From: an uncultured Ruminiclostridium sp.
GTDB taxonomy: Bacteria; Bacillota; Clostridia; Oscillospirales; Ruminococcaceae
Assembly: GCA_964636555.1 (NCBI GenBank)
Contig: CAZWRZ010000013.1
Span: 116-64,115 of the forward strand
Direction: 5' to 3'
DNA: 64,000 bases
How positions within the stretch are numbered: the first letter of the stretch is position 1; every line of letters starts with the position of its first letter. The position numbers and the translations under genes are program-made. The notes beneath the pieces were generated by a model, which saw nothing but the letters and a program-made list of their open reading frames with translations, searched no databases and had not been told where the DNA came from. This document shows, in pieces, positions 6,719 to 47,170 of the stretch.

Positions 6719-7122
6719 GGGGCTGTAAAAAGACAGCCCCCTTTATTTTATGCTCTTAAGAAACTTGTGCTGATTTATGGTTCTCTCAAAAAAGTTGTGT
6801 TGATTTGTGGTTCTCTCAGAAAAGTTGTGCTGATTTGTGGTTCTCTCAGGAAAGTTGTGCTGATTTGGGTTCTCTCAAGGCAGTTGGCGGTAATTTACTG
6901 ATTTAAAAAGAATTTCAAAACCGTAAACATTTTAAAATTACTTGAAAAACTGGGTAATTTTAAAATGTTTACTATCCGACCGAGTTTGGAGTTTTTGCTT
7001 GAAAAGCTGGGCAAAAACTCCAAACTCAGTCGATTTTTGAATTTCGTGCTATCAGAACAGTTGTGAGAGTGGAAACCCGCTTTTAGATATGTAGTACAGA
7101 TTTTACGGTTTTTTACAGCCCC
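6719..7122 (+). repeat. Modular intergenic element, family 1 copy A
   Basis: Four 30-bp units (6761-6880); core CTGAT...ATCAG 6898-7055 with perfect 18-bp (6923-6972) and 17-bp (6982-7027) hairpins, both with CTTGAAAARCTGGG loops; 13-bp inverted ends GGGGCTGTAAAAA/TTTTTACAGCCCC. Confidence 0.95.
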
Positions 7123-7289
7123 GCTTTTTGCCTGTTTATATTAAACGAATCACCGTCTGTATTTTCACAGCATAAATTCAATTTCCAATTCGCTTTCGTG
7201 TTCCCGATGCGTCCCAACCGAAAACTTTTGATTATTTGCAGATACTGATATTATATGTCTTTTTTCTCTGCTGCCTTACAAATAAGAAT

Positions 7290-7790
7290 TTATAAAACGC
7301 GTTGGGCTACAACTACGGTATAGTTATCGGTATCATAAGTAATCCCGGTTTCCGTAAAATTGTTTTTATGCCAAAAATGCTCCGATTGAGGATTTCCCTT
7401 TGCCCAGCCAAGCCGAACGCTTGAAAATCCGATATCGGTCAGATAGCAGCACAAATCATCAATAATACCGCTTCCGATTCCGGTGTTTTGGACCGACGCC
7501 GCTGTCATAAAGAATCCTATGAAAGCAGTTTTCTCATCAGGGTATGCCATAATAAGATCCATTACAGCAATCAGCTTGTCTCCTTTGTAGTACCCCACAT
7601 AATATTTATCTGACATTTCTTTGTTTGGAGGCAGAGCCTTCATATCATCAAGAATACTCTGCTCCGTCACAAATGGCGGACAGTATTGATAAAACAAGCC
7701 GTTTTTACTGCACAACAGGTATATATCTTTGACATCCGCTTTATCCATGCGGCGCACATCATAATCATCAGAAAAAAGGGATATATCCAT
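7290..7790 (-). CDS. GNAT family N-acetyltransferase
   Basis: FIGFFM...VQNTGIGS acetyl-CoA motif, VRLGWAKGNPQSEHFWHKNNF. Confidence 0.9.
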   Translation of the reverse strand: MDISLFSDDYDVRRMDKADVKDIYLLCSKNGLFYQYCPPFVTEQSILDDMKALPPNKEMSDKYYVGYYKGDKLIAVMDLIMAYPDEKTAFIGFFMTAASVQNTGIGSGIIDDLCCYLTDIGFSSVRLGWAKGNPQSEHFWHKNNFTETGITYDTDNYTVVVAQRVL

Positions 7791-7971
7791 TTATGTCACC
7801 TTCACAAATCCGATTTGCGGATTACTATACGGTCAATAAAATAATTCACGGCGCAAAGCAAGTTATATATTCATTCCATTCACTTGGGAACCCGAAGTCG
7901 GATTGGAACAAATCCAAAAGCCTCCAATAAATTCTCAAATCCGAATATATTGCATTTCCGACAATAGGGAA

Positions 7972-8883
7972 CTATTTTTCGGAATCGGTATCTATGGAAA
8001 CAATATACCGCGGTCTGCCTTTGATCTCCTCATATATTTTGCTCAGATAATATCCGATGACTCCAAGTGCAAGCATTATAAGTGAGCTTGAAAACAGCAG
8101 TACGGGGATTATGCCGTTTTGTGGTATTCCTTGACACAATCTTACTATCGAAATGATTCCCGTGACTATTGACGCAAACAGGAAAATAAAGCCGAAAACC
8201 GTCACAAGGTGTAAGGGCGCATTTGTAAAGCCGGTGAGGTTTGATATTGCGAATTTAAACAGCTTTTTGAAATTCCACTTGCTTGCTCCCGCATTTCTCG
8301 GAGCAACATTGAACTCTATCTTTGTTGTTTTAAAGCCTACCCATGAGGACAGAGCCCTGTAAAAGGTTATCCTTTCGGGCAGCTCGTTAAGCGCGTCTAT
8401 GACCTGTCTGTCCATAAGCTTATAGTCGCTGGCGCCGTTCATGTCGATGTTGGAGGAGCTTTTCATCATTCCGTAAAAGCTTTTTGCGAAAAATCCGTAA
8501 ATGGGGCTTTCCTTTCCTCTTGAAGCCTTCACTGCTTCAACCACCTGCCAGCCTTGCTTCCACAGATTGTGCATTTCAACCATAAGCTTGGGCGGGTGCT
8601 GCAGATCACAGTCTATAACAACGGCGCAGTCTCCCTTGCAGTGCTTCAAGCCTGCAAAGATCGCCCCTTCCTTGCCGAAATTGCGTGAAAACTTCAAGCC
8701 CCTTACCGATTTGTTCTTTTCTGCAAGACCTTCTATAAGCTCCCAAGTCCTGTCCCGTGAGCCGTCGTCCACGAAAAAAATTTCGCAGTCTATATTATTT
8801 TCTTCCATAATACCGCCTATCACATTGGCGGTATTTTCAATGTTTTCCTCCTCGTTGTAAGAAGGAATTATTATTGACATCAT
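7972..8883 (-). CDS. GT2 polyprenyl-phosphate glycosyltransferase (GtrB/YkcC-like)
   Basis: IIIPSYNEEENI, VDDGSRD, FSRNFGKE, DCDLQHPP, two C-terminal TM helices, RPRY tail. Confidence 0.92.
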   Translation of the reverse strand: MMSIIIPSYNEEENIENTANVIGGIMEENNIDCEIFFVDDGSRDRTWELIEGLAEKNKSVRGLKFSRNFGKEGAIFAGLKHCKGDCAVVIDCDLQHPPKLMVEMHNLWKQGWQVVEAVKASRGKESPIYGFFAKSFYGMMKSSSNIDMNGASDYKLMDRQVIDALNELPERITFYRALSSWVGFKTTKIEFNVAPRNAGASKWNFKKLFKFAISNLTGFTNAPLHLVTVFGFIFLFASIVTGIISIVRLCQGIPQNGIIPVLLFSSSLIMLALGVIGYYLSKIYEEIKGRPRYIVSIDTDSEK

Positions 8884-8919
8884 GGTTTTTTAAATCTCCT
8901 TTTTGAGAAAGCCGTCAGG

Positions 8920-10047
8920 TTACGGTTCCTTAAGCGGCTCAAGAGCCAATCCGCCGCTGACTGTGGTTACATACAGAATGTTTGACGGCTCCGAGGGCTT
9001 TTGCAGGTCAATACTTCCGAAAAACCGTTCTTCAAGTCCCATAAGTCCGCCGTCAAGCCAGCCGCTGACCGTTCTGAACTCCAGATCTACTCCCGAATTT
9101 TCGGGCATAAGCACTTTGATATTTCCCTCATTGCTTTCAAATCTACCCTCTGTTGCATATTCCTTATATGAGCAGAAGATCCCTCCGCTTATAGATGCGG
9201 CGTTTATTTCCCTGTCGGCGCTGTTTATATAAATATTTCCGCTTCTGGTTCGGAGCTTGGTGTAAAGGGAGGGAGTGCCTTCAAGGGTTATGGTGCCGCT
9301 TCCGCTGCTCAGATAAAATTCGCGGTAATCGCTTTCGGGCAGCCACACAGTCATCTTGTAGCCGAACTGATCCCGTGCGAACAGCGAAAGGGTGAAGGAG
9401 TCGTCCTGTGTTATTTTAAGGTAATCCTCGCTGCTTTCCTCCACGATAATGGGCATATCGTTGGCGTATTCCACCAGAATTTCTTCTCCCTCATAGCTTT
9501 TTATCTCAAAATCAAGCCCCGAGGTGCTGATGTACAAGTACTTTGCGGCAGGGAAGGAAAGACTCTCCTTTACCACCGTGCTTTGATAGTCCCTTGCAAT
9601 ATCCGTATAACGAAGCCAGATAAACGCCCCCAAGAAAATAAGGGTGAAAATAAGGCTGATGATCAGAAGCCTTGAAAAGCTGAAATTTGAATATATCCTC
9701 CGCCAGCGCTTGTCTCTCACAGCGGCAATGTATTTGTACAGAAGCCTGACAGAAAAGGGGGAAAATACGCAAAGGAAAAAACCGAGGAACACCCCCGCGC
9801 ACAGCATAAGGGCGCCCGCCGCAGTCAAAGTTACGGGAGAAAGATCCGAAACCACCTTCAAGACCTTTACCGCTCCTGTCATATCGATAATTCCAACGGG
9901 CAGACACAAAAGCCCCGCCGACAAAAGCACCAGAGCCGAGACCGCCAAGGCGAAATTTATGATAAAAAGCGTCAAAAAGCCTGCGGCAGCAGGGATCAGC
10001 AAAATCCTTGCAAGGCAAACTTTAAGGGATCTTTCCCCTTTGTCCAT
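8920..10047 (-). CDS. Membrane protein with a DUF4097-like beta-strand repeat domain
   Basis: Three N-terminal hydrophobic segments, then repeated T/S-SG-x-I beta motifs (SSGSGTI, TRSGNI, SISGGI, TVSGGL). Confidence 0.7.
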   Translation of the reverse strand: MDKGERSLKVCLARILLIPAAAGFLTLFIINFALAVSALVLLSAGLLCLPVGIIDMTGAVKVLKVVSDLSPVTLTAAGALMLCAGVFLGFFLCVFSPFSVRLLYKYIAAVRDKRWRRIYSNFSFSRLLIISLIFTLIFLGAFIWLRYTDIARDYQSTVVKESLSFPAAKYLYISTSGLDFEIKSYEGEEILVEYANDMPIIVEESSEDYLKITQDDSFTLSLFARDQFGYKMTVWLPESDYREFYLSSGSGTITLEGTPSLYTKLRTRSGNIYINSADREINAASISGGIFCSYKEYATEGRFESNEGNIKVLMPENSGVDLEFRTVSGWLDGGLMGLEERFFGSIDLQKPSEPSNILYVTTVSGGLALEPLKEP

Positions 10048-15554: not shown

Positions 15555-16550
15555 TCAAGACCCCGCCCTGCTTTTATCCTCCGACAAAATATCCAGCCAA
15601 TCCTCGGGAAATCCCAGCATAGACAGCTCCACAACCTCCTTGTAATCAAAATAAAGCCTTCTGAACTGCCTTAAAAAGCCGTCGCGCCACTTAAAGGGCT
15701 GCCTGTAAAGCTCCTTCATAACGAGTATGTACTCAAAAACCGTACCCTCGCTTGAATGAAGATCTCCCATTTCCCAATCGTAAAGTCTGTGATAGTGGGC
15801 GCAGTGATTGCGGAAATCAGACATCTTATGCAGCTTCATTTCCAGATCGCCCGAAGAGGTGTTGTAGTGTTTTTTCGATATATCCATTTTGTCGCCGGGC
15901 TTCAGATCCGCATAGAACATATTCAAGCCGCCGAAGCTGAACAACTCCATTATTACCCACAGAGGGAACTGTCCAGCGTGCTTTCTCAGATAGTGCTGCA
16001 CCATTTCGCTGTCCTCGTTGCTTTCCACCAGCCTGCTTATGCGGGACAGGAAGGATTTGTGATTATGGACATGGCTGAAGGTTTCCGGGCTGAGATATCC
16101 CGTTGCACCGTACTTTATGGCATGATAGTTGGAGCAGTGGGCGCGGAAGGCAATCTCTATTTCCTCTAAGGTTCCCATTAAAAGAGAACGCAGTTTGCGG
16201 TCAAAGTCGTAAACAAGCAGAACCTCGTTGAATTTTGTGCCCTCTCTGTACTTGCCGTCCTTCTGCAAATACAGCGAAAAATAGTGAGCCAAGCGGAAGT
16301 AATTTATGTTGGTAAGGGTTTCAAGAGCAAACTCCTCGTCCTCAACGATACAGCCTCTTTCTTTCAGCTTTGCAAGCTGCTCCGCGACGGTGGCGGGGAG
16401 CTTTGCTCTCGGATCCTTTTTGGGATTTTTGTTTTTTGCGGTTATTTCCCTTTGCTCGTGATCCCTTGTATAGTCTTCTTCTCTGACTTGTTTCTGCCGA
16501 GGCTGATTTTTGGGATTGCCTGTTGGTCGGTTGTTGTAGCCCTTGCTCAT
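15555..16550 (-). CDS. Abi-family (Abi_2/AbiD/AbiF-like) HEPN protein
   Basis: EQLAKLKERG...INYFRL...VYDFDRKLR...LEEIEIAFR, PLWVIMELFSFG, intact HEPN RNHCAH. Confidence 0.88.
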   Translation of the reverse strand: MSKGYNNRPTGNPKNQPRQKQVREEDYTRDHEQREITAKNKNPKKDPRAKLPATVAEQLAKLKERGCIVEDEEFALETLTNINYFRLAHYFSLYLQKDGKYREGTKFNEVLLVYDFDRKLRSLLMGTLEEIEIAFRAHCSNYHAIKYGATGYLSPETFSHVHNHKSFLSRISRLVESNEDSEMVQHYLRKHAGQFPLWVIMELFSFGGLNMFYADLKPGDKMDISKKHYNTSSGDLEMKLHKMSDFRNHCAHYHRLYDWEMGDLHSSEGTVFEYILVMKELYRQPFKWRDGFLRQFRRLYFDYKEVVELSMLGFPEDWLDILSEDKSRAGS

Positions 16551-16574
16551 AATTGCTCCTGATTTGTGTTTGGT

Positions 16575-16895
16575 GTTTTAGGAAAGTTGTGCTGATTTGG
16601 GTTCTCTCAAGAAAGTTGTGTTGATTTATGCCCGCTCTTCGGGAAGTTGGCGGTGATTTACTGATTTAAAAGAATTTCAAAATTCTTAAAATAAAGACTC
16701 CATGCCGCAAGCGGCATTCTGCTTTATTTTAAGAACCGGTCAGAATTTTCGTTGAAAATTCTGACGCTTTTTGAAATTCGTGCTATCAAGAAAGTTGCGG
16801 GAGTGGTGATCCGCTCTTCGGAATTTTGTGCTGATTTTTACTGCTCTTTTAGGGAAGTTGTGTGAATAGATGCCCGCTTTTAGCAGATGTTGCAC
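16575..16895 (+). repeat. Modular intergenic element, family 1 copy B
   Basis: Same outer frame (16661-16789) with different inner hairpins (TTCTTAAAATAAAG stem with nested ATGCCGCAAGCGGCAT; GTCAGAATTTTC-GTT-GAAAATTCTGAC); about 30-bp units on both sides. Confidence 0.92.
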
Positions 16896-17570
16896 TTATT
16901 TAATATTTTCCGCCGTATTTGGTCTTTTAACGTCTACCACAAAGCTCGTATCCGACATTAGCTTCAGCAGATCATCCGTGCCGTGTTCTATCTTGTACTC
17001 CATTTCCTCGCGGTAAATAGGAATAAGCTGATAAAAGTTGACGGGGTCGCCGCCCGGAAGAGTGCAGGTGTTGCTTTCGCCGACCATGGGATCAATAAGC
17101 AGTGCGCCGCAAAATTCGGTGTTATCTGCATAAGCGCCCTGATTATCCACCGAATGTCCCCAGCCTAACCATGTGTCGCAGGCAATAGGCAGCCTTGCGG
17201 TGCTTTTCAGAAGCCGAATGGGCCAATACCACTTTTCGTCCTTTTCGGGTATTACCCAATCGGTCGGAAGAGTGATGAGCAGCTCCGCTCTTTCCAGCTT
17301 ATACTCCGCCAATTCGGGAGGAACATTCATTTTATGCGCCCCCATTCCCATAGTGACCAAGGTGTAGTAATTCCTGTCCCCAGCAGGGGGAATAAACAAT
17401 ATATCAACATGAATATCGGGCGACACTATTTCGTGAAATACGTTGTTGAATTCGCCGAAGCTTTGGCTGACAAAGCTGTCAACAGTCTCCATTTCCTCTT
17501 GGCTGTACATTTCGGGAGCCATGCCGTCGGAATGCTCATTGCTTTTCTTTTTTCCGCCAAACAGTTTCAT
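16896..17570 (-). CDS. Suppressor-of-fused (SUFU) domain protein
   Basis: HEIVSPDIHVDI, YTLVTMGMGAHKMNVP, RAELLITLP, WLGWGH, FYQLIPIYREE. Confidence 0.88.
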   Translation of the reverse strand: MKLFGGKKKSNEHSDGMAPEMYSQEEMETVDSFVSQSFGEFNNVFHEIVSPDIHVDILFIPPAGDRNYYTLVTMGMGAHKMNVPPELAEYKLERAELLITLPTDWVIPEKDEKWYWPIRLLKSTARLPIACDTWLGWGHSVDNQGAYADNTEFCGALLIDPMVGESNTCTLPGGDPVNFYQLIPIYREEMEYKIEHGTDDLLKLMSDTSFVVDVKRPNTAENIK

Positions 17571-17574
17571 AGTT

Positions 17575-18237
17575 TTAAAATACGCTCCTTCTTTCGGGAT
17601 TGACACAGTAAACCAGATCCAGATTTTTTCTCAGCCCTTTAAAAAGCTGTTCTCCGCCGTGTTCTTTTCTGTACCTGATCTCCTCTCTGAACAGCGGGAT
17701 AAATTGGAAAAACTTCACGCTGCTGCCGTCCGAAAGCTTGCACAGACTGCTGTCCTCGGAAATGTCCACCTCGGGTTCAACAAGCAGCGCACCCATAAAT
17801 TTATTGAGCGGGTCGTAATACTTGGGCATCTCAATAACCGGAAATTCGCCGAAGCAGCAGTCCTTTTCCGCTGCCAGCTTTGCCGCATCTCTCAGCAAAT
17901 GCAGCGGCCAATATATCTCCTCGGTTTTTTCGTCCAAGGGCCAGTTCTTGTCAAGGGTGAGAATTAACTCAATTCTGTCGTGAAAATCCGCTTTAGCGTT
18001 CAAAGGTACGCTTGCAGGGGGATTTATCTTATGTGCGCCCAAGCCCGTTGTTACCAACGTGTAAAATGGCTTGGCGAAATTCGGCGGAATTATGGCGATA
18101 TCGGGATGAACGCCGGAGGAGGAGTAGTCACGGTAAAATGACTTTGTTTTTCCGTAGTGCTTTTTGATATACTTTTTCAATATATCGCTGTCCTTGTTGG
18201 AATAAAGCTCCTGTATGCCGGTTTCTTCTGTGCTCAT
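17575..18237 (-). CDS. Second, divergent SUFU-domain protein
   Basis: VHPDIAIIPP, YTLVTTGLGAHKINPP, RIELILTL, YWPLHLL, FFQFIPLFREE. Confidence 0.82.
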   Translation of the reverse strand: MSTEETGIQELYSNKDSDILKKYIKKHYGKTKSFYRDYSSSGVHPDIAIIPPNFAKPFYTLVTTGLGAHKINPPASVPLNAKADFHDRIELILTLDKNWPLDEKTEEIYWPLHLLRDAAKLAAEKDCCFGEFPVIEMPKYYDPLNKFMGALLVEPEVDISEDSSLCKLSDGSSVKFFQFIPLFREEIRYRKEHGGEQLFKGLRKNLDLVYCVNPERRSVF

Positions 18238-18309: not shown

Positions 18310-19524
18310 TTACGCTTTCTTTATCTTCATCATGCTCTTTTTGCCTTTTTTAACAACAACATAATCCTTTATTTCGATCATCTCTGCGGGATCGGCAATC
18401 TTTTTGTCGTCAACGCTTGCTCCGCCCTGCTGAATAACCGTTCTTGCGTCGCGTTTTGACGGACACAAGCCCGACTTTACCAACAAGTCCGCAATGTTTA
18501 TCTTATCCTCTGTCAGATCCTCGGGGGCGAGAACATATTCGGGCATATTGTCGCTTACACCCTTTCCGCCGAACAGCGCCTTGGCTGCTTCCAGAGCCTT
18601 GTTTGCTTCCTCCTCGCCGTGTACCAGCTTGGTGAGCTCAAAGGCAAGTATCTCCTTGGCTCTGTTAAGCTGACTGCCTTCCCAGCTTTCCATAGCCTGT
18701 ATTTCCTCAACAGGCAGGAAGGTCAGCATTTTAAGGCACTTTATAACGTCAGCGTCCGCCACGTTTCTCCAATACTGGAAAAATTCGTAGGGAGGAGTTT
18801 TTTCGGGGTCAAGCCACACTGCGCCCTTTTCCGTCTTGCCCATTTTCTTGCCCTCGCTGTTGAGCAGCAGAGTAATGGTCATAGCGTGAGCGTCTTTGCC
18901 CAGCTTCTTTCTGATAAGCTCGGTACCGCCCAGCATATTCGCCCACTGGTCGTCGCCGCCGAACTGCATATTGCAGCCGTATTTCTGGAACAGCATGTAA
19001 AAGTCGTAGCTCTGCATTATCATATAGTTAAATTCAAGGAAGGTCAGACCTCTTTCCATTCTCTGCTTGTAGCATTCAAAGGTGAGCATTTTGTTTACCG
19101 AAAAGCAAGCGCCCACTTCTCTCAGAACATCTACATAGTTAAGGTTCAGAAGCCAATCCGCATTGTTCACCATAAGCGCCTTATCGTCGGAAAAATCGAT
19201 AAAGCGGGACATCTGCTTTTTAAAGCACTCGATGTTATGGTCTATATCCTCCTTGGTGAGCATTTTTCTCATATCCGATTTGCCCGAGGGGTCGCCTATC
19301 ATACCCGTTCCGCCGCCCAAAAGAGCTATGGGCTTGTTGCCCGCCATTTGCAGTCTCTTCATAAGGCACAGCGCCATAAAGTGACCTACATGGAGACTGT
19401 CGGCGGTGGGGTCAAAGCCGATATAAAATGTGGCTTTGCCCTCGTTTATCATCTTGCTTACTTCTTCCTCGTCGGTTACTTGTGCAATAAGTCCTCTTGC
19501 AACTAATTCGTCATACAGTTTCAT
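18310..19524 (-). CDS. tyrS: Tyrosine--tRNA ligase
   Basis: [13 protein letters not shown] (HIGH), [13 protein letters not shown] (KMSKS), C-terminal S4-like domain. Confidence 0.97.
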
Positions 19525-19571: not shown

Positions 19572-20036
19572 TTACAGCTTTTTCTCCATAAGCAGCTTAT
19601 CTTCAAAAAAGCCCATTTCCCTGTCAAAGGCAACTGCCTCTGTGTTATCGGAGTTTACTATAAGTCTTACACAATCGCATTGTATGGAGCGTGCCGCATC
19701 ACATACCTTGTCCATAAGCTCTCTGCCTATGCCCTGTCTCCGTGCATTTTCCGCAACGGAAAACTGATTGATATGGCATATCCTGCGGGGAGTTTCATCG
19801 GGCTGGGTGGTATTGAACGCCTTAAACACCACATAGCCGTCTACTCCCTTTTCTCCCTGATGTACAAGGGTTATCCATTCGTCGCTGTTCAGTATATCGG
19901 TCATATTGTCACGGTAAAGACTTTCGTTCTCGGGAATGCAGAATGCTTCCGGCTTCAGCCTGACATGGTGCTCATGCAGCTCCTTGTACAATGCGCAAAG
20001 CTGTTCAAGATCGCTCATTTCGGCTACTCTTATCAT
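19572..20036 (-). CDS. GNAT family N-acetyltransferase
   Basis: FSVAENARRQGIGRELM, NTEAVAF. Confidence 0.9.
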   Translation of the reverse strand: MIRVAEMSDLEQLCALYKELHEHHVRLKPEAFCIPENESLYRDNMTDILNSDEWITLVHQGEKGVDGYVVFKAFNTTQPDETPRRICHINQFSVAENARRQGIGRELMDKVCDAARSIQCDCVRLIVNSDNTEAVAFDREMGFFEDKLLMEKKL

Positions 20037-20052: not shown

Positions 20053-20511
20053 TCAGATACTCTGAGCCATAATTATTGTTCTGGGTAAAAGACCTATTTT
20101 TTCATAAAAGCTTCTTGCGTTTTCGTTTTCGGCGTCAACACCAAGCCGGACTGCGTTACAGCCCATTTCCTTTGCATACTCTTTAATGCCTTCAAAAAGC
20201 TTTTTCCCGATCCCTTTATGCCTTTCCCTTTCATCAACGCCAAAGCAGTCGATAAAGCACACTCTTCCCGATACCTTTTCTTCGCCGTTTACCTCAATAA
20301 TTCTGAAAAGGGCGTAGGCGTCGGCGGTTCCGTTGTCGTTTATCAAAATCACAGAATTGCTGTCCGCCAAAATTTCCGAGATCTTCTCCTCAAAAAATTC
20401 CTCTCTTGGCATAATGTGCTTGTGGGGAGCAATCTTGCAGTGATATTGATGAAGCTGCTTAAAAAGCCTTACTATTTGTTCTTTATCTTCAAAATTTGCC
20501 TTTCTTATCAT
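20053..20511 (-). CDS. GNAT family N-acetyltransferase (paralog of 19572-20036)
   Basis: Start MIRKANFED with GAAGGAG SD; FGVDERERHKGIGKKLF, NENARSFYEKIG. Confidence 0.9.
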   Translation of the reverse strand: MIRKANFEDKEQIVRLFKQLHQYHCKIAPHKHIMPREEFFEEKISEILADSNSVILINDNGTADAYALFRIIEVNGEEKVSGRVCFIDCFGVDERERHKGIGKKLFEGIKEYAKEMGCNAVRLGVDAENENARSFYEKIGLLPRTIIMAQSI

Positions 20512-20523
20512 AAATACTCCTTC

Positions 20524-20686
20524 AGAACCTGTCTTCACAAGATATTGCACGCGTCTTTTCGGCAAATTTTGCCGCGTACCGCGTTGGAAAGCCTTGAAAT
20601 ACGTCAAGTATTCCTGCGGCTTTCCGCCTTGTCCTCGACAAAATTTGCTCGAAAATGCATGCACAAATCTTGTGAAGACAGGTTCT
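20524..20686. mobile_element. 163-bp palindromic MITE-like element, family 2 copy 1
   Basis: Perfect 20-bp terminal inverted repeats AGAACCTGTCTTCACAAGAT (20524-20543/20667-20686); internal TTGAAATAC-N5-GTATTCCTGCGG; no clear target duplication. Confidence 0.75.
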
Positions 20687-20799: not shown

Positions 20800-21140
20800 A
20801 CAAAACCCCCCAACAGAAAAATCTGTCGGAGGGCGAATCAACTCGCGGTACCACCTCGGTTTACGGCAAAAGCCGCCTCATTAACGGCGGGAATTTCAAA
20901 GGAGCTTTGATTTTTCAAAAATCAAAAATATTCCTCACCGCTTTAAGCTGTAACGGGCTTACCCGTATTTTGCTATTGCAATGCCTTTATCGGGCTGTTA
21001 TCGGCAAGCCACGGCACCCTTTCTCACAAAATCACTCGGAAATGTATTTCGCCGCCTTACGCCGCCCTTTTCCACCTGCCAAGGGCTCTCTGTGGGTTTA
21101 TCTCGGTTACTTCTTTTCCTCATCGTTTTACTGTGTATTA
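20800..21140 (-). promoter_or_regulatory. T-box riboswitch, Tyr specifier
   Basis: AGAGA and GGTGGAA stem I motifs, GAAA-TAC-A specifier (21044-21046), T-box GAGGTGGTACCGCG (20844-20857), terminator with U tract; promoter TTGACA(21169-21174)-17-TAAACT. Confidence 0.92.
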
Positions 21141-22680: not shown

Positions 22681-22710
22681 GAGGGCTGTAAAAAATGCAG
22701 CCCTTTTTAA
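22681..22710. terminator. Bidirectional terminator hairpin
   Basis: AGGGCTGTAAAAAATGCAGCCCTTTTT between convergent genes. Confidence 0.75.
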
Positions 22711-23169: not shown

Positions 23170-23533
23170 CTTATTTTATGCTCCCAAGAAACTTGTGCTG
23201 ATTTATAGTTCTCTCAGGAAAGCTGGCGGTAATTTGCTGATTTAAACAGAATTTCAAAACCGACAAGATTTAAAAGATTTCCGGTACTAATCCCTTTTAA
23301 AACTGTGGGATTAGTACGAAAAGCTGGGAAATTTTTAAATCTTGTCTATCTAACTGAGTTCGAATTTTTTGCTTGAAAAATTGGGCAAAAATCCGAACTC
23401 AGTTGATTTTTGAAATTCGTGCTGTCAGGGCAGTTGTGCTGATCGGCATCCGCTTTTAGAAGGCTTGTGCCGATTTTTTACCGTTCTGTTAAGAAACTTG
23501 ATATAAAATAGGGGCTGTCTTTTTTACAGCCCC
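23170..23533 (+). repeat. Modular intergenic element, family 1 copy C
   Basis: Core 23237-23428; hairpin 1 has an extra GTACTAATCCC/GGGATTAGTAC hairpin inserted in its loop; GGGGCTGT palindrome at the right end. Confidence 0.93.
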
Positions 23534-26673: not shown

Positions 26674-26687
26674 AATAATGCTCCTCA

Positions 26688-28243: not shown

Positions 28244-28290
28244 ATAAAAAGGAATGTAATACTAATTCTCAATAAAAATAAGACAAATCC

Positions 28291-28386: not shown

Positions 28387-28426
28387 AATTTGGCTGATTT
28401 TTATTGAAATTTAGTATAAATAAAGA

Positions 28427-28661
28427 CTTCACTCTCTAAAAGCGGGCTCCTAATCGCACAACCGTCTTGATAGCACGAATTTCAAAAATTGTTCGAGGTT
28501 AGAGTTTTTGCCCGGCTTTTCAAGCAAAAGCTCTAACCTCGGACGGATAGTAAACTTATTTTTTATAATTTCCCATCTTTTCGTACTAATCCCACAGTTT
28601 AAAAGAAATTAGTACAGGGAATCTATAAAAATAAGTTTACGGTTTTGAAATTCTTTTCAAT
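28427..28661 (-). repeat. Modular intergenic element, family 1 copy D (truncated at the rpe RBS)
   Basis: TGATAGCACGAATTTCAAAAA...TTTTGAAATTCTTTT with copy-C-type nested hairpin; abuts AAGGAG at 28662. Confidence 0.9.
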
Positions 28662-28676
28662 AAGGAGTTGATAAGC

Positions 28677-30132: not shown

Positions 30133-31377
30133 ATGTCAAGTTATAACAATCACTCCCTTTCCCTGACTGACAGCAGGCTCGAGGAAGGGGCGGAGGAACC
30201 TTCTCTTAAGGCAAAAAGGAGCTTTTTGGGAAGAAAATATCACTCGGTTTACGGCGACCAGCTGGTGTGCCTTTGCGCTCTGCTTATTATGTCGGTGTGG
30301 CGCTGGGGCTTAAGGGCGCTGGTTATATGTCTTGTAAGCCTTGTTACGTCGGTGTTTGCCGATTGGCTCTGCTGTAAAATGACCAAAAAGGTCTACAACC
30401 CCAAGGACGCTTCAACCTTTGTCAGCGGCTTGTGCCTTGGTCTTTTGATGCCTGCCGCCATAGCTTACCGCTATGTAGTATTCGGGTCGGCTTTGGCTAT
30501 GGGCGTTAAGCATATTTTCGGCGGAAAGAACAACTACGTTTTCAACCCCGCTTGCTTAAGCTACGCCTTTCTGGCTATCTGCTGGCCTTCTCATGTGCTT
30601 ATGTTCCCCAATGCGGGAGAGCAGATCCCGGTGTTTGAAGCATACAGCGGCACTCTTTCCACAGGACTTGAGGGCTATCTTATACAGCTGGGCGCGGCAA
30701 AGACAATATCACTGTCCGATCTGCTGTTAGGCAACTTCTTGGGACCGATCGGAACAACTCATGTGCTTGTTCTGGCGGTGTGCGGAATTTGCCTTATGTG
30801 CAGACGCGCATTGTCGCCCACTGTTACTTTTGTGTCCTTCGGAGTGTTTTTGGCGCTGTCCTTCCTGTCCTCCTCCTACGAAAATTTCTACAATGCTATA
30901 ATTATTGAGATAATAGGCGGAAATATTCTTTTCGGACTGCTCTTTCTTGCCAGTGATCCTCAGACCTCGCCCCAAACCTTTCTCGGTAAGATATATTACG
31001 GAATGATAATAGGTATTCTGCTGGTTATATTCAGAATTATGACAAAAACCGAGTCCAGCTTTGTTTATGTGCTGCTTATCGCCAATGCGGTATCGCTGCA
31101 TATTGACCTTTTTGCCGAAAATACAATCAAAGGGGTCAAATTTGCGGTCAAGTGGATGAAGAATTCCTCGGGCAGCTTTGAAAGAGTGCGCAATGAGGCG
31201 CAGCAGGACAAGCCTGTTACCAAAAAAGCCTTAGGAGATACTCAGGAAATTATTTTACCTCCCGTAAACTATAATATGCCCGCGGTGGACAACAAGATCA
31301 TAAAAGCCTCAAAAAAGCCGCCGAAAATTGTCAAGGGCAAGGATAATATACCTGTAAGAAAAGATAACAAAAAGTAA
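30133..31377 (+). CDS. RnfD/NqrB-like membrane protein lacking the FMN motif
   Basis: GLLMP, KHIFGGKNNYVFNPA, LLGNFLGPIGTT, GGNILFGLLFLASDPQTSP, GKIYYG, VLLIAN; the SGAT/TGAT position reads YSGTL. Confidence 0.88.
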   Translation: MSSYNNHSLSLTDSRLEEGAEEPSLKAKRSFLGRKYHSVYGDQLVCLCALLIMSVWRWGLRALVICLVSLVTSVFADWLCCKMTKKVYNPKDASTFVSGLCLGLLMPAAIAYRYVVFGSALAMGVKHIFGGKNNYVFNPACLSYAFLAICWPSHVLMFPNAGEQIPVFEAYSGTLSTGLEGYLIQLGAAKTISLSDLLLGNFLGPIGTTHVLVLAVCGICLMCRRALSPTVTFVSFGVFLALSFLSSSYENFYNAIIIEIIGGNILFGLLFLASDPQTSPQTFLGKIYYGMIIGILLVIFRIMTKTESSFVYVLLIANAVSLHIDLFAENTIKGVKFAVKWMKNSSGSFERVRNEAQQDKPVTKKALGDTQEIILPPVNYNMPAVDNKIIKASKKPPKIVKGKDNIPVRKDNKK

Positions 31378-31433
31378 TCGGATAAGAGCAATCAAAATCA
31401 ATTCAAAGAAATTGTAAAATCAGAGGAAAAAAG

Positions 31434-34398: not shown

Positions 34399-34780
34399 GG
34401 GGCTGTAAAAATCAGCCTCTAATTTTTTTACAAGATTTTAAAAGAAATGTAAAAATCAACACAACGCCCCATAAAAGCGGTGAAAAATTATCACTTGTTT
34501 CCTTAAAGGCGGGTTACCATTCTCACAACTTTTCTGATAGCACGAATTTCAAAAATCGACTGAGTTTGGAGTTTTTGCCCAGCTTTTCAAGCAAAAAATC
34601 CAAACTCGGTCGGATAGTAAAGATTTTAAAATTTCCCAGTTTTTAAAGAAATTTTAAAATGTTTACGGTTTTGAAATTATTTTTAAATCAGCAAATTACC
34701 GCTAACTTCTCTGAGAGAACCATAAAATCAGCACAAGTTTTTTAGAACATAAATAAAGGGACTGCCTTTTTGACAGTCCC
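34399..34780 (-). repeat. Modular intergenic element, family 1 copy E
   Basis: Near reverse-complement copy of the A core (34534-34691); GGGGCTGT-type palindromes at both ends. Confidence 0.93.
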
Positions 34781-36301: not shown

Positions 36302-37669
36302 TTATTCACAGCCCAAGGCAATTCCGCATTCAATTCTCTTTTGCTGTAATTTGCAGGCAAGAGAATTGGGTATCTGCACATCTCCCTCATATTGGAAGGA
36401 ATTGGCGTTGCAGCCGCCCGAGCAGTAGAACCTTGCCCAGCAGTCAGAACAGCCCTTTTTGCTGTAAATGTGGGTTTTGGCAAAATAATCCTTCATGCCC
36501 TTGTCAACGGTACCTTCAAATATATTGCCCATTTTCCACCGGTCCATTCCTACAAATTGGTGACAGGGGAAAATTTCTCCGTCGGGAGTAACGGCAACAT
36601 ATTCGTTTCCGCAGCCGCAGCCTCTCAATCTTTTGATTGCGCAAGGACCTTGGTTCAGATCTATCTTGAAGTGGAAAAAGTTGAATCTGCCCGGATCTTT
36701 TTCCATTATCTCATAAAGTCTTTCATACTCTTTGTAGATAACAGGCAGATCTTCTTCCGTCAGAGCGTAGGGAAATTTTGAATCGGTGACTACGGGCTCT
36801 ACCGACAGCTGCTTAAAGCCCAGATCTGCAAAATGGAGAATATCGTTGGCAAAATCCAGATTGTATTTGGTAAATGTACCTCTTATATAGTAGTCGGTGC
36901 GTCCTTCTTTGGTTCTGCCCTCAACAAGCTTTTTGAATTTGGGGACGATTATGTCATAGCTGCCCTTGTGATTGGGGGTGAAGCGTATCCTGTCGTTTAC
37001 TTCCTTTCTGCCGTCAAGGGAAAGGACACAGTTGGACATTTCGCGGTTGATGTACTCTATCTTTTCATCATCAAGCAGCATTCCGTTGGTGGTAATGGTA
37101 AAGCGGAAGTTTTTTCCGTGCTGCTTTTCGATACTTCTTGCATAGTCTACTGTAGAAGTTACGGTGTCCCACGCCATAAGGGGCTCTCCGCCGAAAAAGT
37201 CTACCTCTAAATTTTCTCTGCCAAAGGATTTTTCTATAAGGAAATCAATAGCTTTTTTGCCCACCTCAACGGGCATCAGCTTTCGTCCCGTTCCGAAATC
37301 TCCCGTTTCGGCAAAGCAGTATTCGCACCGCAGATTGCAGTCGTGGGAAACGTGCAGGCACATTGCCTTAATGGGAGAGTTAAGGGTCTTGTCGGCAAAT
37401 TGGCGGTATTCGTCCTCCGAGAACAGGCACTTGTCCTTGTACAGCTGTTCCAGCTCTTCAAGACATTCGGCAATATCGGTTTTATTGTATTGGGGAAGCT
37501 TTTCCGCCAGCTCCTCGGCGGTTACACCCAAATTATCGGCGTTGGGTTCCGGGCAGATATGATCCAGCATCTGAAAGATCATCTCGTCTACAAGATGAAC
37601 TCCGCCGCTGTTGACGTCGAGAACGATGTATTTTTCGCCTTGCTTGTATTTATGTATTCTTGTTTCCAA
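36302..37669 (-). CDS. scfB: SCIFF/ranthipeptide radical SAM maturase
   Basis: CNLRCEYC, VDFFGGEPL, SPASM cysteines, adjacent precursor gene. Confidence 0.95.
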   Translation of the reverse strand: METRIHKYKQGEKYIVLDVNSGGVHLVDEMIFQMLDHICPEPNADNLGVTAEELAEKLPQYNKTDIAECLEELEQLYKDKCLFSEDEYRQFADKTLNSPIKAMCLHVSHDCNLRCEYCFAETGDFGTGRKLMPVEVGKKAIDFLIEKSFGRENLEVDFFGGEPLMAWDTVTSTVDYARSIEKQHGKNFRFTITTNGMLLDDEKIEYINREMSNCVLSLDGRKEVNDRIRFTPNHKGSYDIIVPKFKKLVEGRTKEGRTDYYIRGTFTKYNLDFANDILHFADLGFKQLSVEPVVTDSKFPYALTEEDLPVIYKEYERLYEIMEKDPGRFNFFHFKIDLNQGPCAIKRLRGCGCGNEYVAVTPDGEIFPCHQFVGMDRWKMGNIFEGTVDKGMKDYFAKTHIYSKKGCSDCWARFYCSGGCNANSFQYEGDVQIPNSLACKLQQKRIECGIALGCE

Positions 37670-37699
37670 TTTTGTGTCCTCGCTTGTGATATATAAAAT

Positions 37700-38120
37700 T
37701 TTTTTAATTCTCTCAAAAAACTTGTGCTGAATTGCAGTTCTCTTAGGGAAGTTGTGCCGGTTTTGGTTCTCTCAGAAAAGTTGTGCGAATGGAAGCCCGC
37801 TTTTTGGGAAACTTGTACGAATAGAGACCCGCTTTTAAGGAAAGTTGGCGGTAATTTACTGATTTAAAAAGAATTTCAAAATTCACCAAAAAGACAATCC
37901 GCTCCGCCTTGCTCCGCTCCTCGTCTTTTTGGGAACCGGACGAAATTGAAAATTCCAGACTTCCGTAGGAAGTCATAGCCTTCTTTGAAATTCGTGCTAT
38001 CAGGGCAGTTGTGCTGTTAGGAAACCGCTTTTAGGAAAGCTGTGCTGCCGGGAAACCCGCTCTTAGTGGTGTTGTGCTGATTTTCCAATAATAAAGGGGC
38101 TGATTATCACAGCCCCTTTA
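37700..38120 (+). repeat. Modular intergenic element, family 1 copy F
   Basis: Four upstream and three downstream about 30-bp units; core 37859-38003 with a (GCTCC)n loop; ends in the GGGGCTG...CAGCCCC hairpin. Confidence 0.92.
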
Positions 38121-38132: not shown

Positions 38133-38276
38133 TTACTTGTTAGCCTCGCAAGTCTGATTAGCAACGGTGCAAGAGGTCTTGCAAGCGGACTGGCAAGAGG
38201 TCTGGCACTTGCCGCAGCCGCCCTTTGCCGCTGTTTCCTTAAGGTTAGCCTTGTTTACTGTTTTAATATGCTTCAT
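38133..38276 (-). CDS. scfA: Six-cysteine SCIFF precursor peptide (47 aa)
   Basis: Hand translated: MKHIKTVNKANLKETAAKGGCGKCQTSCQSACKTSCTVANQTCEANK; AAGGAG SD. Confidence 0.96.
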   Translation of the reverse strand: MKHIKTVNKANLKETAAKGGCGKCQTSCQSACKTSCTVANQTCEANK

Positions 38277-38445
38277 AGTCAGTTCTCCTTTCATGAGTAT
38301 CGGGTATAGTGCTATTGCATTACATTATAGCATATAAAATGATAATTTGCAAGAGATTGACGAAAAAAACTGCCGTGAATAAGACTATTGAAAATCATCA
38401 AAACTTATGCTAAAATAAAACAAGTTTAAAAAGAGGTGTTAATAA

Positions 38446-39066: not shown

Positions 39067-39087
39067 AAGGTACAAGCGGAGGAAAAT

Positions 39088-39777: not shown

Positions 39778-40200
39778 AAGCACAGCTTTTTCAAGGGTGT
39801 GCAAAAATAGCACAACACCTCTAAGAGCGGTGAAAAATTATCACCTGTTTCCCTAAAAGCGGGCTTCCACTTTCACAACTGCTCTGATAGCACGAATTTC
39901 AAAAATCCGCACTCAGTTAGATAGACAAGATTTAAAAATTTCCCAGTTTTTCAAGAAATTTTTAAATCTTGTCGGTTTTGAAATTCTTTTTTAAATCAGC
40001 CAATTACCGCCAATTTTACTTAAAAGCGGGCTTCCGCTCGCACAACTTCCCTGAGAGCCCCAAAAATTAGCGCAGCATTCCTAAAAGCGAGTTTCCGACA
40101 ACACGACTTCCCTAAGAGAGCCAAATCAGCAAACTTTCATAAAAGAGCCGTAACATTAGGCGCAACATTTTTAAGAGCAATAAAACTCGCACTGTCAAAA
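39778..40200 (-). repeat. Modular intergenic element, family 1 copy G (second hairpin deleted)
   Basis: Core 39884-39999 keeps only hairpin 1; long run of about 30-bp units follows. Confidence 0.92.
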
Positions 40201-43694: not shown

Positions 43695-43832
43695 TTTATT
43701 AAAAACACTTAAAAATTCATTCCGATTGTTAATAAGCGTTGCGGCGGCTGCCTGAAATTACCCTTAAGCATTTAAGGAAAAGGCGGAGAGTAAGACCGCA
43801 GTGCGTTAACTTGCAGTTGAAAGGATAATAAT

Positions 43833-45857: not shown

Positions 45858-45874
45858 GAGGGGAGGAACGAACC

Positions 45875-46138: not shown

Positions 46139-46162
46139 TAACGGAAGGAGATTGTATAAACT

Positions 46163-46531
46163 ATGATACAAATGCAGACACGCCTTAAAGTAGCTGATAA
46201 CACCGGCGCAAAAGAGCTTATGTGTATCAGAGTGCTGGGCGGAACACGCAGAAAGTACGCCAATATCGGAGACGTAGTTGTAGCTTCCGTTAAGAAGGCT
46301 GCTCCCGGCGGCACTGTTAAGAAGGGCGACGTTGTTAAGTGCGTTATCGTCCGCAGTGCAACAGGCGTAAGAAGAGACGACGGCACATACATTCGTTTTG
46401 ACGAAAATGCCGCAGTTCTCATCAAGGAAGATAAAAACCCCAGAGGAACCCGTATTTTCGGACCTGTGGCAAGAGAGCTCCGTGATAAGGAATATATGAA
46501 GATCCTTTCCCTTGCTCCCGAAGTACTTTAA
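46163..46531 (+). CDS. rplN: 50S ribosomal protein L14
   Basis: [21 protein letters not shown]. Confidence 0.98.
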
Positions 46532-46549
46532 GTTGAAGGAGGAGCAGGA

Positions 46550-46864
46550 ATGAATACTTTACATGTTAAAAAAGGCGACGAAGTAATGATAATTTCCGGC
46601 AAGGACAAGGGCAAAAAAGGCAAAGTGCTTGAAGTGTCCCCCTCCGAAGGCAAGGTTATCGTAGAAGGCAGAAACATGGTAACCAAGCATGTCAAGGCTA
46701 CCAAGCCCGGTCAGGCTTCCGGTATAGTTAAGGCAGAAGGTCCTCTTTACGCCTGCAAGGTAATGCCCGTTTGCCCCAAGTGCAACAAGGCTACCAGAGT
46801 AGGTCACAAAGTAGAGGGCAACAAGAAGGTAAGAGTTTGCAAGCATTGCGGTGCAGCTTTATAA
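46550..46864 (+). CDS. rplX: 50S ribosomal protein L24
   Basis: HVKKGDEVMIISGKDKGKKG (KOW). Confidence 0.98.
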   Translation: MNTLHVKKGDEVMIISGKDKGKKGKVLEVSPSEGKVIVEGRNMVTKHVKATKPGQASGIVKAEGPLYACKVMPVCPKCNKATRVGHKVEGNKKVRVCKHCGAAL

Positions 46865-46879
46865 TTGAGAGACAATTAT

Positions 46880-47170
46880 TTTAAGCATACAAATTCAAGC
46901 AAACTTTACTGACAGCACGAATTTCAAAAAGGACGAAATTTTCAATTTCGTCCGGTTCCAGAAAATAAAGAGGAATGGAGCGGAATGAAATGAAGCGGAA
47001 TGGATCTTTATTTTTGGAATTTTGAAATTCTTTTCAAATCAGTAAATTACCACCAACATTTTTGAGAAAACCCCAAAATGAGAAAACATTTTTGGGAGAA
47101 CCAAAAATGAGCCAACATTTTTGAGAGAACCCAAAATCGAAAAAACTTTTCTGGGAGACCTCAAAACCTA
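46880..47170 (-). repeat. Modular intergenic element, family 1 copy H (inside the spc operon)
   Basis: Core 46909-47042 of B/F type with a GGA-rich loop, then four AACATTTTTGAGAGAACC-type units. Confidence 0.9.

Follow-up and report, generated by a model that had tools for sequence, protein, structure and literature searches.

Non-coding repeats described in other bacteria provide the background for the element analyzed here, a hairpin-rich repeat that occurs in eight intergenic copies in a 64,000-nucleotide stretch of DNA from an uncultured Ruminiclostridium sp. (GenBank assembly GCA_964636555.1, contig CAZWRZ010000013.1, positions 116 to 64,115; this whole stretch is called the window below). 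BOX elements show no clear target duplication, and the number of their boxB modules changes by slippage (PMC3049150). The ~155-bp bcr1 repeat of the Bacillus cereus group is transcribed, has two stem-loops kept by compensatory changes, and is flanked by 5-bp direct repeats (PMC3184786). A repetitive extragenic palindrome (REP) is defined as a 20- to 40-bp G+C-rich imperfect palindrome with a GTAG or CGTC tag (PMC3733652). BrickBuilt, an intergenic element restricted to the species Porphyromonas gingivalis, is made up of leader and tail subunits together with a minisatellite whose units are 23 nt long (PMC4596501). Correia elements undergo cleavage by RNase III, ERIC brings in a site for RNase E (PMC3049150, PMC3184786), and intergenic stem-loops of Clostridium cellulolyticum set the relative stability of mRNA segments and the stoichiometry of cistrons (PMC4423207).

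The eight segments of the window are true copies of one abundant, lineage-restricted non-coding repeat of uncultured gut Clostridia. The repeat is of the same general kind as BOX, bacterial interspersed mosaic elements (BIMEs), bcr1, Correia/NIME, ERIC, and BrickBuilt, and it is not categorically new; it is apparently undescribed. With a probability of about 0.7, we regard it as a BOX-, BIME-, and bcr1-like non-autonomous mosaic repeat that is co-transcribed with host mRNAs and folds as RNA. An earlier reading of the window, made from its letters alone (the sequence-only reading), had arrived at a high-copy non-autonomous element or a structured RNA of no named family, and this inference is supported by the analyses that follow.

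Identification and distribution of the repeat

The sequence-only reading described eight copies in a fixed frame, and both motif counts and a covariance model return exactly these eight. The inner frame motif TTAAAAAGAATTTCAAAA has 9 matches with ≤3 mismatches in the 64-kb window (0.5 expected), eight of which are the reported sites, and the outer frame motif AGTTGGCGGTAATTTA has 7 (0.8 expected). The covariance model was built from related copies and then run on the window without filters; it scored copy B at 138 bits, H at 109, F at 82, G at 55, A at 50, E at 43, D at 26, and C at 25, and the next best match lay at 18 bits. The composites are ~230 to 410 bp long, with core G+C contents of 28 to 42% in a window of ~45% G+C, and they total ~2.7 kb, or 4% of the window. 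The density is ~1 copy per 8 kb, and roughly one in seven or eight intergenic spacers is occupied. No open reading frame (ORF) of ≥100 amino acids lies wholly inside any of the eight elements in the window, in line with the earlier statement that no ORF is inside.

Arrays of ~30-bp units had also been reported. A Hamming scan with two consensus forms of the unit gave 39 matches in the window, 37 of them inside the eight elements (shuffles give 0 to 3), the arrays were also called by Tandem Repeats Finder, and units were found only beside cores. The arrays are therefore genuine; the earlier description is corrected in that they lie on both sides of the core and have a polarity.

The repeat is framed by two pairing arms, here called the clamp, and a scan of one genome per species for the clamp 19-mer found at least 77 loci, at least 68 of them in the Oscillospiraceae metagenome-assembled genome (MAG) JAAVIE01, which holds at least ~100 exact matches on these loci. 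Among the matches listed, the clamp also occurs in the uncultured Clostridia MAG CANEHP01 and in Oscillospiraceae UBA11956. Two matches outside the carrier group, L005 (RUG13924) and L009 (an Acidobacteriaceae MAG), were set aside as chance matches. A census with the covariance model counted ~100 distinct copies in 564 kb of related loci; a contig end truncates many of these, which is what a repeat that breaks assemblies would be expected to produce. In gut metagenomes, the k-mer depth of the clamp is 30 to 150 times that of flanking single-copy sequence, so that the high copy number proposed earlier proves to be very high both in JAAVIE01 and in gut metagenomes. JAAVIE01 is syntenic with the window at 78 to 97% nucleotide identity, which makes a locus-by-locus comparison possible.

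Modular organization of clamp, hairpins, and units

The sense strand is defined here as the reverse complement of the strand written in the sequence-only reading. Read in sense, a full copy consists of 0 to ~4 U2 units, the 5' clamp arm (CTGAT-AGCAC-GAATTTCAAAA), hairpin modules, the 3' clamp arm (TTTTGAAATTC-TTTTTAA-ATCAG), which can pair with the 5' arm, TAAATTACCGCCAACTT, and further U2 and U1 units. The clamp arms form an imperfect inverted repeat of 21 to 23 nt around the core, and composites that are present or absent as wholes begin and end in direct-repeat units. The shared, pairing outer frame that had been claimed for all eight copies is confirmed, except that D is without the outer left frame (AGTTGGCGG...CTGAT).

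Two unrelated sets of hairpins are closed by this one clamp. The earlier division of the copies into A/C/D/E/G and B/F/H stands, but the size and number of the hairpins had to be revised: stems range from 12 to 22 bp overall, and the clamp closes 1 to 3 hairpin modules in the window and 0 to 5 in relatives. Type I cores (A, C, D, E, and G) contain one or two A+T-rich hairpins of 18 to 22 bp, in which the stems vary and the 14-nt loop CCCAGYTTTTCAAG is conserved. Type II cores (B, F, and H) contain a 12- to 13-bp hairpin with a hypervariable central loop, then CGG, and then a 14-bp stem capped by a GGAG-rich internal loop and a small GC helix; near-identical cores differ chiefly in the central loop of hairpin 1. 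Hairpin modules are swappable and can be nested in each other's loops, and one hairpin class also occurs flipped. Optional modules, namely, GACTTCC-TGCG-GGAAGTC, GTACTAATCCC...GGGATTAGTAC, GCAGC-TTT-GCTGC, GTACTTCTCGGC-TTG-CCGAGAAGTAC, and a 70-nt branched insert, sit before, between, or inside the loops of the core hairpins, and a clamp with just 9 nt inside is also found.

The units are 29 to 32 bp long, run in the same sense, and share the 13-nt word ATCAGCACAACTT; U2 reads CTAAAAGCGGGnTTCCAnTCGCACAACTT or CTAAAAGCGGGcTTCCAtTCGCACAACTT, and U1 reads CTGAGAGAACCACAAATCAGCACAACTT. Each module, whether U1, U2, or core, terminates in one word, (A)TCAGCACAACTT. The polarity of the arrays is most evident for U1, with 35 units on the 3' side of the core versus 1 on the 5' side, and U2 has 72 units on the 5' side and 40 on the 3' side. 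Arrays hold 1 to 6 units, often reach the ribosome-binding site (RBS) of the next gene, and are present as small coreless arrays at five loci. A recurrent short form stops after TTTTGAAATTCTTTT and adjoins the next Shine-Dalgarno sequence; D, the copy at L027:1430, and the X3/X4 allele of H are of this form.

A separate insert of ~220 bp was noticed in the rplB-rpsS spacer of JAAVIE01 (L022:6709-6930, orthologous to window positions 43740-43806). It is rich in hairpins, e.g., GTACTTTGACGCTTTGCGTCAAAGTAC, which are like some of the optional modules and are without a clamp, and it suggests a wider pool of hairpin modules in these genomes.

Orientation with respect to neighboring genes

The orientation of the repeat is locked to the direction of the neighboring genes, and the lock is nearly absolute. 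Among cores with co-directional flanking ORFs in the window and loci, 48 lie in sense with the genes and 4 in the opposite direction. The frame as written in the sequence-only reading is the antisense strand with respect to the flanking genes (the same 48 cores are antisense in that orientation), and the lock to transcription went unseen there. When the local majority of gene orientation was used as a proxy for replication direction, 12 of 12 matches whose flanking genes oppose that majority still followed the flanking genes. Four copies point each way in the window, each running with its own neighboring genes: copies A, B, C, G, and H are located between co-directional genes and follow them, D adjoins the RBS of rpe on the sense side, and F follows the SCIFF-type gene and its radical-SAM/SPASM partner, a minus-strand island in a plus-strand region. 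Since this 4:4 split falls within one replichore (unless an origin or terminus is situated at ~28 kb), replication does not set the orientation; a replication-linked orientation is ruled out by the minority-orientation islands and the split of the window. It is the clamp arms, linkers, loops, and units that carry the orientation, the stems being palindromic and without one.

Occupied spacers are 62% co-directional, 23% convergent, and 15% divergent, and unoccupied spacers are 74%, 12%, and 14%, respectively (p=0.05), indicating that operon-internal sites are not avoided.

Maintenance of stem pairing and the putative folding strand

Stem pairing is maintained in both core types. In the alignment of 33 type II cores, 99.0% of pair cells form standard pairs versus 89.5% after shuffling, and 20 of 41 pairs show changes on both sides; the 123 cells with both-side changes compare with 31 in shuffled alignments, 0 of 500 shuffles reached 123, and sliding the 3' partners by 1 to 3 columns gave 1 to 15 such cells. 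In the alignment of 18 type I cores, both sides are changed in 18 of 56 pairs, with few breaks. The covariation that the sequence-only reading had looked to as a sign of conserved structure is thus strong in both core types. Clamp, linkers, and loops are invariant in sequence and the stems vary; the 11-bp inner clamp is near-invariant, with one compensated C-G to A-U change that is seen twice.

Near-identical paralogues were sought to define the ends of the element, and none exceeded ~81% identity over ~400 bp. Paralogous copies are 66 to 81% identical over this length with their stems still paired, so that the near-perfect pairing is not simply due to recent copying. Orthologous sites often differ in hairpin subtype or even in core type (C, G, and H), and because of these swaps much of the compensation in the stems is probably replacement of whole modules and not stepwise mutation in place.

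Wobble pairs were counted at interior positions, in distinct sequence contexts only, and symmetrically on both strands. In type II, there are 21 G-U pairs on the sense strand versus 5 on the antisense strand (p=0.0025), and the outer clamp pair alternates between C-G and U-G on the sense strand; there is moderate support for selection of the sense strand as a single strand, either RNA or non-template DNA. A comparison of minimum free energies and G-U pairs had favored the strand of the sequence-only reading for type I; it was rejected as an artifact, since on that strand all type I loops would be closed by two conserved T-G pairs.

A terminator consensus scan of 34.3 to 47.3 kb flagged no core hairpin of E, F, or G; the one that it flagged in H is antisense. 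An A+U-rich hairpin with T4-5 behind it is present in either orientation, and a simple terminator scan decides neither way; copies that are located inside operons cannot be efficient terminators in the sense direction.

Gain, loss, and reshuffling at orthologous sites

Among close relatives, copies come and go, are cut back, and are re-assorted. For at least seven orthologous sites, one relative has an element and another has none, and one of these sites lies inside the spc ribosomal operon, so the empty alleles on which the earlier idea of mobility hung do exist. The site of H is filled in the window and in L079 and empty in the aligned loci L078, L080, and L081; L082 to L084 and L087 have an 82-bp rplX-rplE spacer, the same as the empty allele, and these contigs all encode an identical L5 protein. 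The site is also empty in relatives from runs X26 to X28, where a 316-bp skip is replaced by 28 nt. The filled alleles of H themselves vary: the L079 copy has exactly one 29-nt unit fewer, in register, and that of the X3/X4 strains is without the whole unit array and has a different inner hairpin.

E and F are both missing at their orthologous sites in JAAVIE01 (L021 in the case of E). Conversely, elements present only in JAAVIE01 lie in an rnfD-like/rnf spacer (window positions 31367-31423), upstream of pth (38373-38386), and in the 21-nt pth-trmO spacer (39069-39078). The core type is swapped between relatives at G and at H. Composites begin ...AATCAGCACAAC and end CTGAGAGAA..., that is, at the same unit phase. 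At the F site, the empty allele reads CACATACCACTAA and the first unit of the filled allele reads CACAACACCACTAA, which hints at microhomology at this junction.

Search for a known family, a carrier, or a mobilizing gene

No Rfam 15 family, HEARO/omega-RNA, group II intron domains, OLE, ROOL, and clostridial motifs among them, reaches its gathering threshold on the elements, and in the window only a T-box and an S10-Clostridia leader pass. At E≤10 the elements gave nothing credible (relative to the thresholds, nqrA-II at 25 versus 55 bits, mir-203 at 19.8 versus 65, and SSRC8_2 at 19.5 versus 72), in keeping with the earlier opinion that the repeat belongs to no named family. BLASTN against plasmid and phage collections and a scan of viral contigs gave no match, and there is no sign in these searches that the repeat is carried by a mobile genetic element. 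A literature search with keywords and exact sequence strings returned no description of it.

The HUH (RAYT/IS200) or insertion sequence (IS) partner that had been suggested was not found in the ~650 kb of window and loci, nor was a RAYT (Y1 HUH) gene noticed in the window or in ~560 kb of related MAG fragments. ORF comparison and Pfam annotation of 40 window proteins yielded no recombinase linked to the elements. The sole transposase-type gene in this annotation is of the PDDEXK_2/Rpn-like class (26688-27575), close to D; it varies between genomes and is unlinked to the elements.

Comparison with described repeat families

Like MITEs (miniature transposable elements with inverted repeats), the repeat is small, A+T-rich, non-coding, multi-copy, mostly intergenic, and highly base-paired; unlike them, it has no visible target-site duplication and no clear terminal repeats of the mobile unit, and we know of no IS whose ends are similar to it. 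Both bcr1 and the repeat are interspersed in Firmicutes, are unevenly distributed between close strains, and have a double stem-loop with compensatory changes, but no flanking direct repeats were seen here, and bcr1 has neither a minisatellite nor exchangeable or nested modules. Without a visible target duplication or clear terminal repeats, the repeat is neither a classical MITE nor bcr1.

REP, BIME, and REPIN elements of Enterobacteria and Pseudomonas, which are associated with RAYT transposases, resemble it in layout, being palindrome-linker mosaics that occupy intergenic DNA, also within operons, without the classical MITE signature; they reach hundreds of copies, and effects on mRNA stability and attenuation are documented there (PMC3184786, PMC3116915). 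However, the stems of the repeat are A+T-rich and 12 to 22 bp long, with no conserved GTAG or CGTC at the base, and its modules are all co-oriented, whereas a BIME alternates the orientation of its REPs. The analogy with REPINs drawn in the sequence-only reading therefore fails on the defining features of a REP (no G+C-rich 20- to 40-bp palindrome, no GTAG/CGTC tag), and without G+C-rich tagged palindromes the repeat is not a REP.

BOX elements (Streptococcus pneumoniae and S. suis; boxA-boxB(n)-boxC) and the repeat are both modular, non-coding, intergenic elements of Firmicutes, with pairing end modules, a strain-variable tandem module, a predicted tight RNA fold, and co-transcription, which for the repeat is presumed from its sites. 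In BOX there are no tandem units outside a paired clamp with interchangeable hairpins inside, nor two unrelated hairpin sets in one clamp; in addition, the repeat differs in showing no depletion between co-transcribed genes, in its 48:4 orientation lock, and in being several-fold denser. The comparison is one of architecture: BOX has 0 to n boxB modules between its pairing boxA and boxC ends, and with its tandem units outside the paired ends the repeat is not BOX.

Correia/NIME elements of Neisseria and ERIC of Enterobacteria are likewise co-transcribed structured repeats with an orientation-dependent effect, and NIMEs form mosaic arrays; unlike the repeat, Correia and ERIC have defined terminal inverted repeats, are single units, and belong to another phylum, and Correia has target duplications. 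The MITE BrickBuilt differs in having small inverted-repeat ends, ~19 copies, and bidirectional promoter activity, and it is without a clamped hairpin core, covarying stems, or a reported orientation lock, all three of which the repeat has. The stem-loops of C. cellulolyticum are locus specific and not a dispersed family; their effect is the one proposed below for the repeat. A CRISPR (clustered regularly interspaced short palindromic repeat) array was rejected, as the "spacers" fall into two recurring classes, 1 to 6 units lie at >100 dispersed sites, and the window has no cas gene. What is distinctive is the combination of one invariant clamp with two unrelated sets of exchangeable, nestable hairpins, the polar, word-delimited unit arrays, the very high density, the free use of operon-internal spacers, and the near-absolute lock of orientation to transcription.

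Proposed function and spread

If the repeat is a co-transcribed mosaic element, as we favor, copies in operon spacers would be transcribed through in the sense direction and would fold into a clamp-closed bundle of several helices. At the rplX-rplE, pth-trmO, and SCIFF-maturase sites, the downstream genes must be expressed, so the copies there are presumably transcribed through. The folded element may act as a barrier to exonucleases, and transcription might be partially attenuated. Its perfect duplexes of 20 to 22 bp would be potential substrates of RNase III, as for Correia (PMC3049150), and the stability and dosage of adjacent cistrons could be uncoupled, as by the C. cellulolyticum stem-loops (PMC4423207). 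The opposite orientation would be purged by selection; its cost may lie in a core that ends in a hairpin followed by T5 (one flagged in H) or, alternatively, in G/U-rich units that present Shine-Dalgarno-like sequences followed by start codons. Recombination or gene conversion, for which the conserved clamp and unit words would serve as anchors between copies, would account for most of the turnover, the number of units would change by slippage in the arrays, and new sites would be seeded by an enzyme acting in trans.

Several results weigh against this proposal. Close relatives have nothing at these same sites, which speaks against the element being essential at any single locus. No target-site duplication, for which a check had been proposed earlier, was seen at six filled/empty comparisons, where the junctions are blurred by divergence and a 2- to 3-bp duplication could escape. 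As inverted repeats at the composite ends, a transposase, and near-identical paralogues were not found either, we infer mobility only from presence and absence. No multi-copy ORF family exists among the window and loci L001 to L079, and no pair of clamp arms lies 0.4 to 6 kb apart in the window and loci, so no autonomous parent was found in them. As to folding as RNA, G-U pairs make up ~1% of cells apart from one conserved pair, which is DNA-palindrome-like; the one flipped hairpin class is typical of DNA-level palindromes; and the interior wobble pairs of type I, 21 sense versus 20 antisense, show no asymmetry. A search of metatranscriptomic runs for stranded reads of a carrier gave none. The only true metatranscriptome available (X25) has unstranded contigs with 100 to 900x depth over the elements, for which copy number or contaminating DNA is equally possible.

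Other explanations were weighed against the same observations. The repeat may be a domesticated cis-acting RNA, a "punctuation" of operons that is kept by the host and whose spread is secondary; an RNA-binding protein or RNase would read the invariant clamp, the 14-nt loops (CCCAGYTTTTCAAG), or the GGAG-rich apical loops, and the elements would set the processing, stability, or translation of neighboring cistrons. This is a possibility to be taken seriously, though not the one we expect to hold: there is a lock between orientation and transcription, the stems vary but the clamp, linkers, and loops do not, stems remain paired despite 20 to 30% divergence between paralogues, near-identical cores differ mostly in the central loop of hairpin 1, 3' ends lie directly against RBSs, and the type II sense strand tolerates G-U pairs. 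However, the same intergenic sites are empty in close relatives, even in the essential spc operon, the occupied spacers have no tie to particular genes and are much like all spacers (62% versus 74% co-directional, p=0.05), a single locus can have a type I core in one relative and a type II core in another, and no candidate binding protein has come to light. An element that moves as single-stranded DNA is the next to consider. During transcription the non-template strand of a gene, its sense strand, is exposed as single-stranded DNA, and IS200/IS605 elements orient with replication. A REPIN- or PATE-like hairpin element whose modules are moved and nested by an HUH (Y1/RAYT, IS200/IS605-type) enzyme could insert into single-stranded DNA, including hairpin loops, and the strand lock would then reflect the strand exposed during transcription. 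Stems that are nearly pure Watson-Crick and perfect whatever their sequence, modules nested in loops, the flipped hairpin, the strand-specific tolerance of wobble pairs, and the missing target-site duplication, as expected for this class of transposase, all agree with such a mechanism; we nevertheless consider it unlikely, because the orientation follows the local genes (12 of 12 against the neighborhood, 4:4 in the window), unlike that of IS200/IS605, neither a Y1 gene in the window nor a multi-copy ORF in the loci was noticed, and only the clamp and words are conserved in sequence, neither of which is a subterminal hairpin. The GTAG/CGTC tag and the G+C-rich REP of 20 to 40 bp (definition in PMC3733652) are also lacking.

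Recombination at the unit word would make the repeat an integron-like cassette array, in which a site-specific recombinase acts at (A)TCAGCACAACTT. One 3' word and one orientation are common to all modules, composites begin and end at the same unit phase, strains differ in the number and type of modules that they have at one locus, one core type stands in for the other at orthologous sites, and small coreless arrays exist at five loci; these features fit, but the elements have no linked recombinase, ordinary slippage or unequal crossing-over produces just such an in-register loss of one unit, with boxB as a precedent (PMC3049150), the unit length varies from 29 to 32 nt with degenerate words, and the elements are dispersed at >100 sites with no single platform, all of which renders this account improbable. 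We give hardly any credence to a DNA-level function for the host, whether as phased protein-binding sites with a ~30-bp period or as oriented Chi-like signals. Firmicute Chi sites include AGCGG and GAAGCGG, and ~30 bp is roughly three helical turns; the period of 29 to 32 bp is regular, the 13-nt word is conserved, and U2 carries AAAAGCGGG on the sense strand and contains AAGCGG, yet short motifs such as AGCGG are common by chance, the orientation follows transcription and not the replichore (4:4 in the window), and the clamp and covarying hairpins would be left unexplained. A more far-reaching combination, in which the elements, being more than selfish DNA, form exchangeable non-coding cassettes of clamp, plug-in hairpins, and word-delimited units that a dedicated enzyme adds, shuffles, and removes genome-wide at the 13-nt word or in hairpin loops and that are read as RNA by a protein or RNase, re-tuning the stoichiometry of operons, is a long shot, somewhat more credible to us than the integron-like array and less so than the single-stranded DNA element; to our knowledge, no enzyme-shuffled RNA-cassette system of this kind has been described in bacteria.

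Gut communities contain both filled and empty alleles of the same operon, and the occupied spacers include those in ribosomal-protein operons and in operons for ribosomally synthesized and post-translationally modified peptides (RiPPs); as a natural experiment, the repeat is an unusually clean one for asking if dispersed repeats of bacteria act as parasites or as regulators. If the effect at the RNA level is true, the element could serve in clostridial operons as a portable stabilizer or insulator module. Short-read assemblies of carrier MAGs are broken by the repeat, which could be mistaken for CRISPR-like or small-RNA features and offers a strain-typing marker for an uncultured Oscillospiraceae clade.

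The eight copies and other features of the window

Element A (6751-7090, minus strand) is a composite of, in sense order, one U2 (7058-7086), a type I core with two hairpins (6898-7055), and four U1 units (6762-6879), located between a GNAT gene (7290-7790, minus) and yfhO (3530-6652, minus). A GGGGCTGT..ACAGCCCC hairpin adjoins it at 6720-6750. At the orthologous site of JAAVIE01 only the 5' part is kept, so that the JAAVIE01 copy is a deletion derivative. Element B (16556-16890, minus) has a type II core (16661-16789) with units on both sides; it occupies the entire spacer between a SUFU-domain gene (16896-17606, minus) and Abi_2 (15555-16550, minus), and its last unit merges into the RBS of the Abi_2 gene. 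Element C (23170-23505, minus), also a composite with units on both sides, has a type I core (23237-23428) in which a third hairpin is nested in the loop of the second, and a terminator hairpin (23512-23532) precedes it. Its orthologue in JAAVIE01 (L076) carries two cores: a type I core whose hairpin B is of another subtype, and one that points the opposite way.

Element D (28436-28665, plus) is of the short form, with one U2 (28436-28464) and then a type I core with a nested hairpin; its 3' clamp goes no further than TTTTGAAATTCTTTT, where it meets the AGGAG RBS of rpe (28668). The L076 orthologue of D shows a compensatory G-C to A-U change in hairpin A. Element E (34440-34752, plus), a composite with a type I core (34534-34691) and units on both sides, lies between both terminators of a convergent gene pair. 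Element F (37692-38090, minus) is a composite with three units 5' and five units 3' of a type II core (37859-38003) and carries the extra 5' hairpin GACTTCC-TACG-GGAAGTC; it is located between the SCIFF-like peptide gene (38133-38294, minus) and the radical-SAM/SPASM partner (36302-37669, minus). Element G (39790-40195, plus), between trmO and the S10 leader, is a composite of a type I core with one hairpin (39884-39998), ~three units 5', and ~six units 3'; the orthologous site of JAAVIE01 (L022:2876-3002) has a type II core instead. Element H (46867-47171, plus) is a composite of one degenerate unit, a type II core (46909-47042), and four U1-like units, situated within the spc operon between rplX (46550-46864) and rplE (47235-47774).

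Near-identical terminator-like hairpins of the form GGGCTG-loop-CAGCCC occur four times in the window (6720-6739, 22683-22703, 23512-23532, and 38097-38115; 0.02 expected) and at 20 of 87 loci, often beside repeat elements; they could be a common type of terminator or another small repeat family. The SCIFF-type peptide next to F has six cysteines (...GGCGKCQTSCQSACKTSCTVANQTCEANK), and a terminator-like hairpin and element F separate the peptide gene from the maturase gene. Close to A, ~100 nt between the GNAT gene and the element (7095-7200) are almost identical to JAAVIE01 (L004), with adjoining coding DNA at 83 to 85%; this block may be a conserved 3' untranslated region or an RNA element. 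A further ~75 nt at ~7205-7280 are extra relative to JAAVIE01. Adjacent to D, a long, G+C-rich, apparently structured region (28040-28430) without an Rfam match lies upstream of yajC (27678-28025, minus); conservation with JAAVIE01 covers ~28040-28278 at 84% identity, with 28278 as the end of the aligned block, and the region could be a leader. Downstream of H, the rpsN-rpsH spacer (47977-48269) is 292 bp long, purine-rich, and unrelated to the repeat, and it measures 122 to 274 bp in relatives with identical L5 (L080 and L084).

The PDDEXK_2 (Rpn/YhgA-like) gene (26437-27575 region, minus) contains an in-frame 12-bp tandem repeat (26760-26840) that encodes (A/K)EGR repeats, and a partial duplicate of its C terminus lies downstream (26437-26655). 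Only its first 28 codons are left at the orthologous site of JAAVIE01, and a 60%-identical copy is found elsewhere in that MAG (L051). A stretch at 58640-59073 contains ten DnaA-box-like 9-mers (TTWTCCACA, ≤1 mismatch), five of them perfect TTTTCCACA, in two clusters around an A+T-rich stretch (58760-58940); elsewhere in the window such 9-mers occur about once per kb. By its motifs, this stretch looks like an oriC or a DnaA-box cluster; its flanking genes converge (rplQ, plus; ABC transporters, minus), and no dnaA is among the 40 window proteins scanned. A 66-bp tandem repeat (3.8 copies, 89% matches) at the start of the window (14-266) lies within long ORFs. The T-box leader (20826-21132, minus, 102 bits) is followed by two GNAT genes (20053-20664 and 19572-20036) and then by tyrS (18310-19524); this order, with GNAT genes before tyrS, is unusual for a T-box-controlled synthetase.

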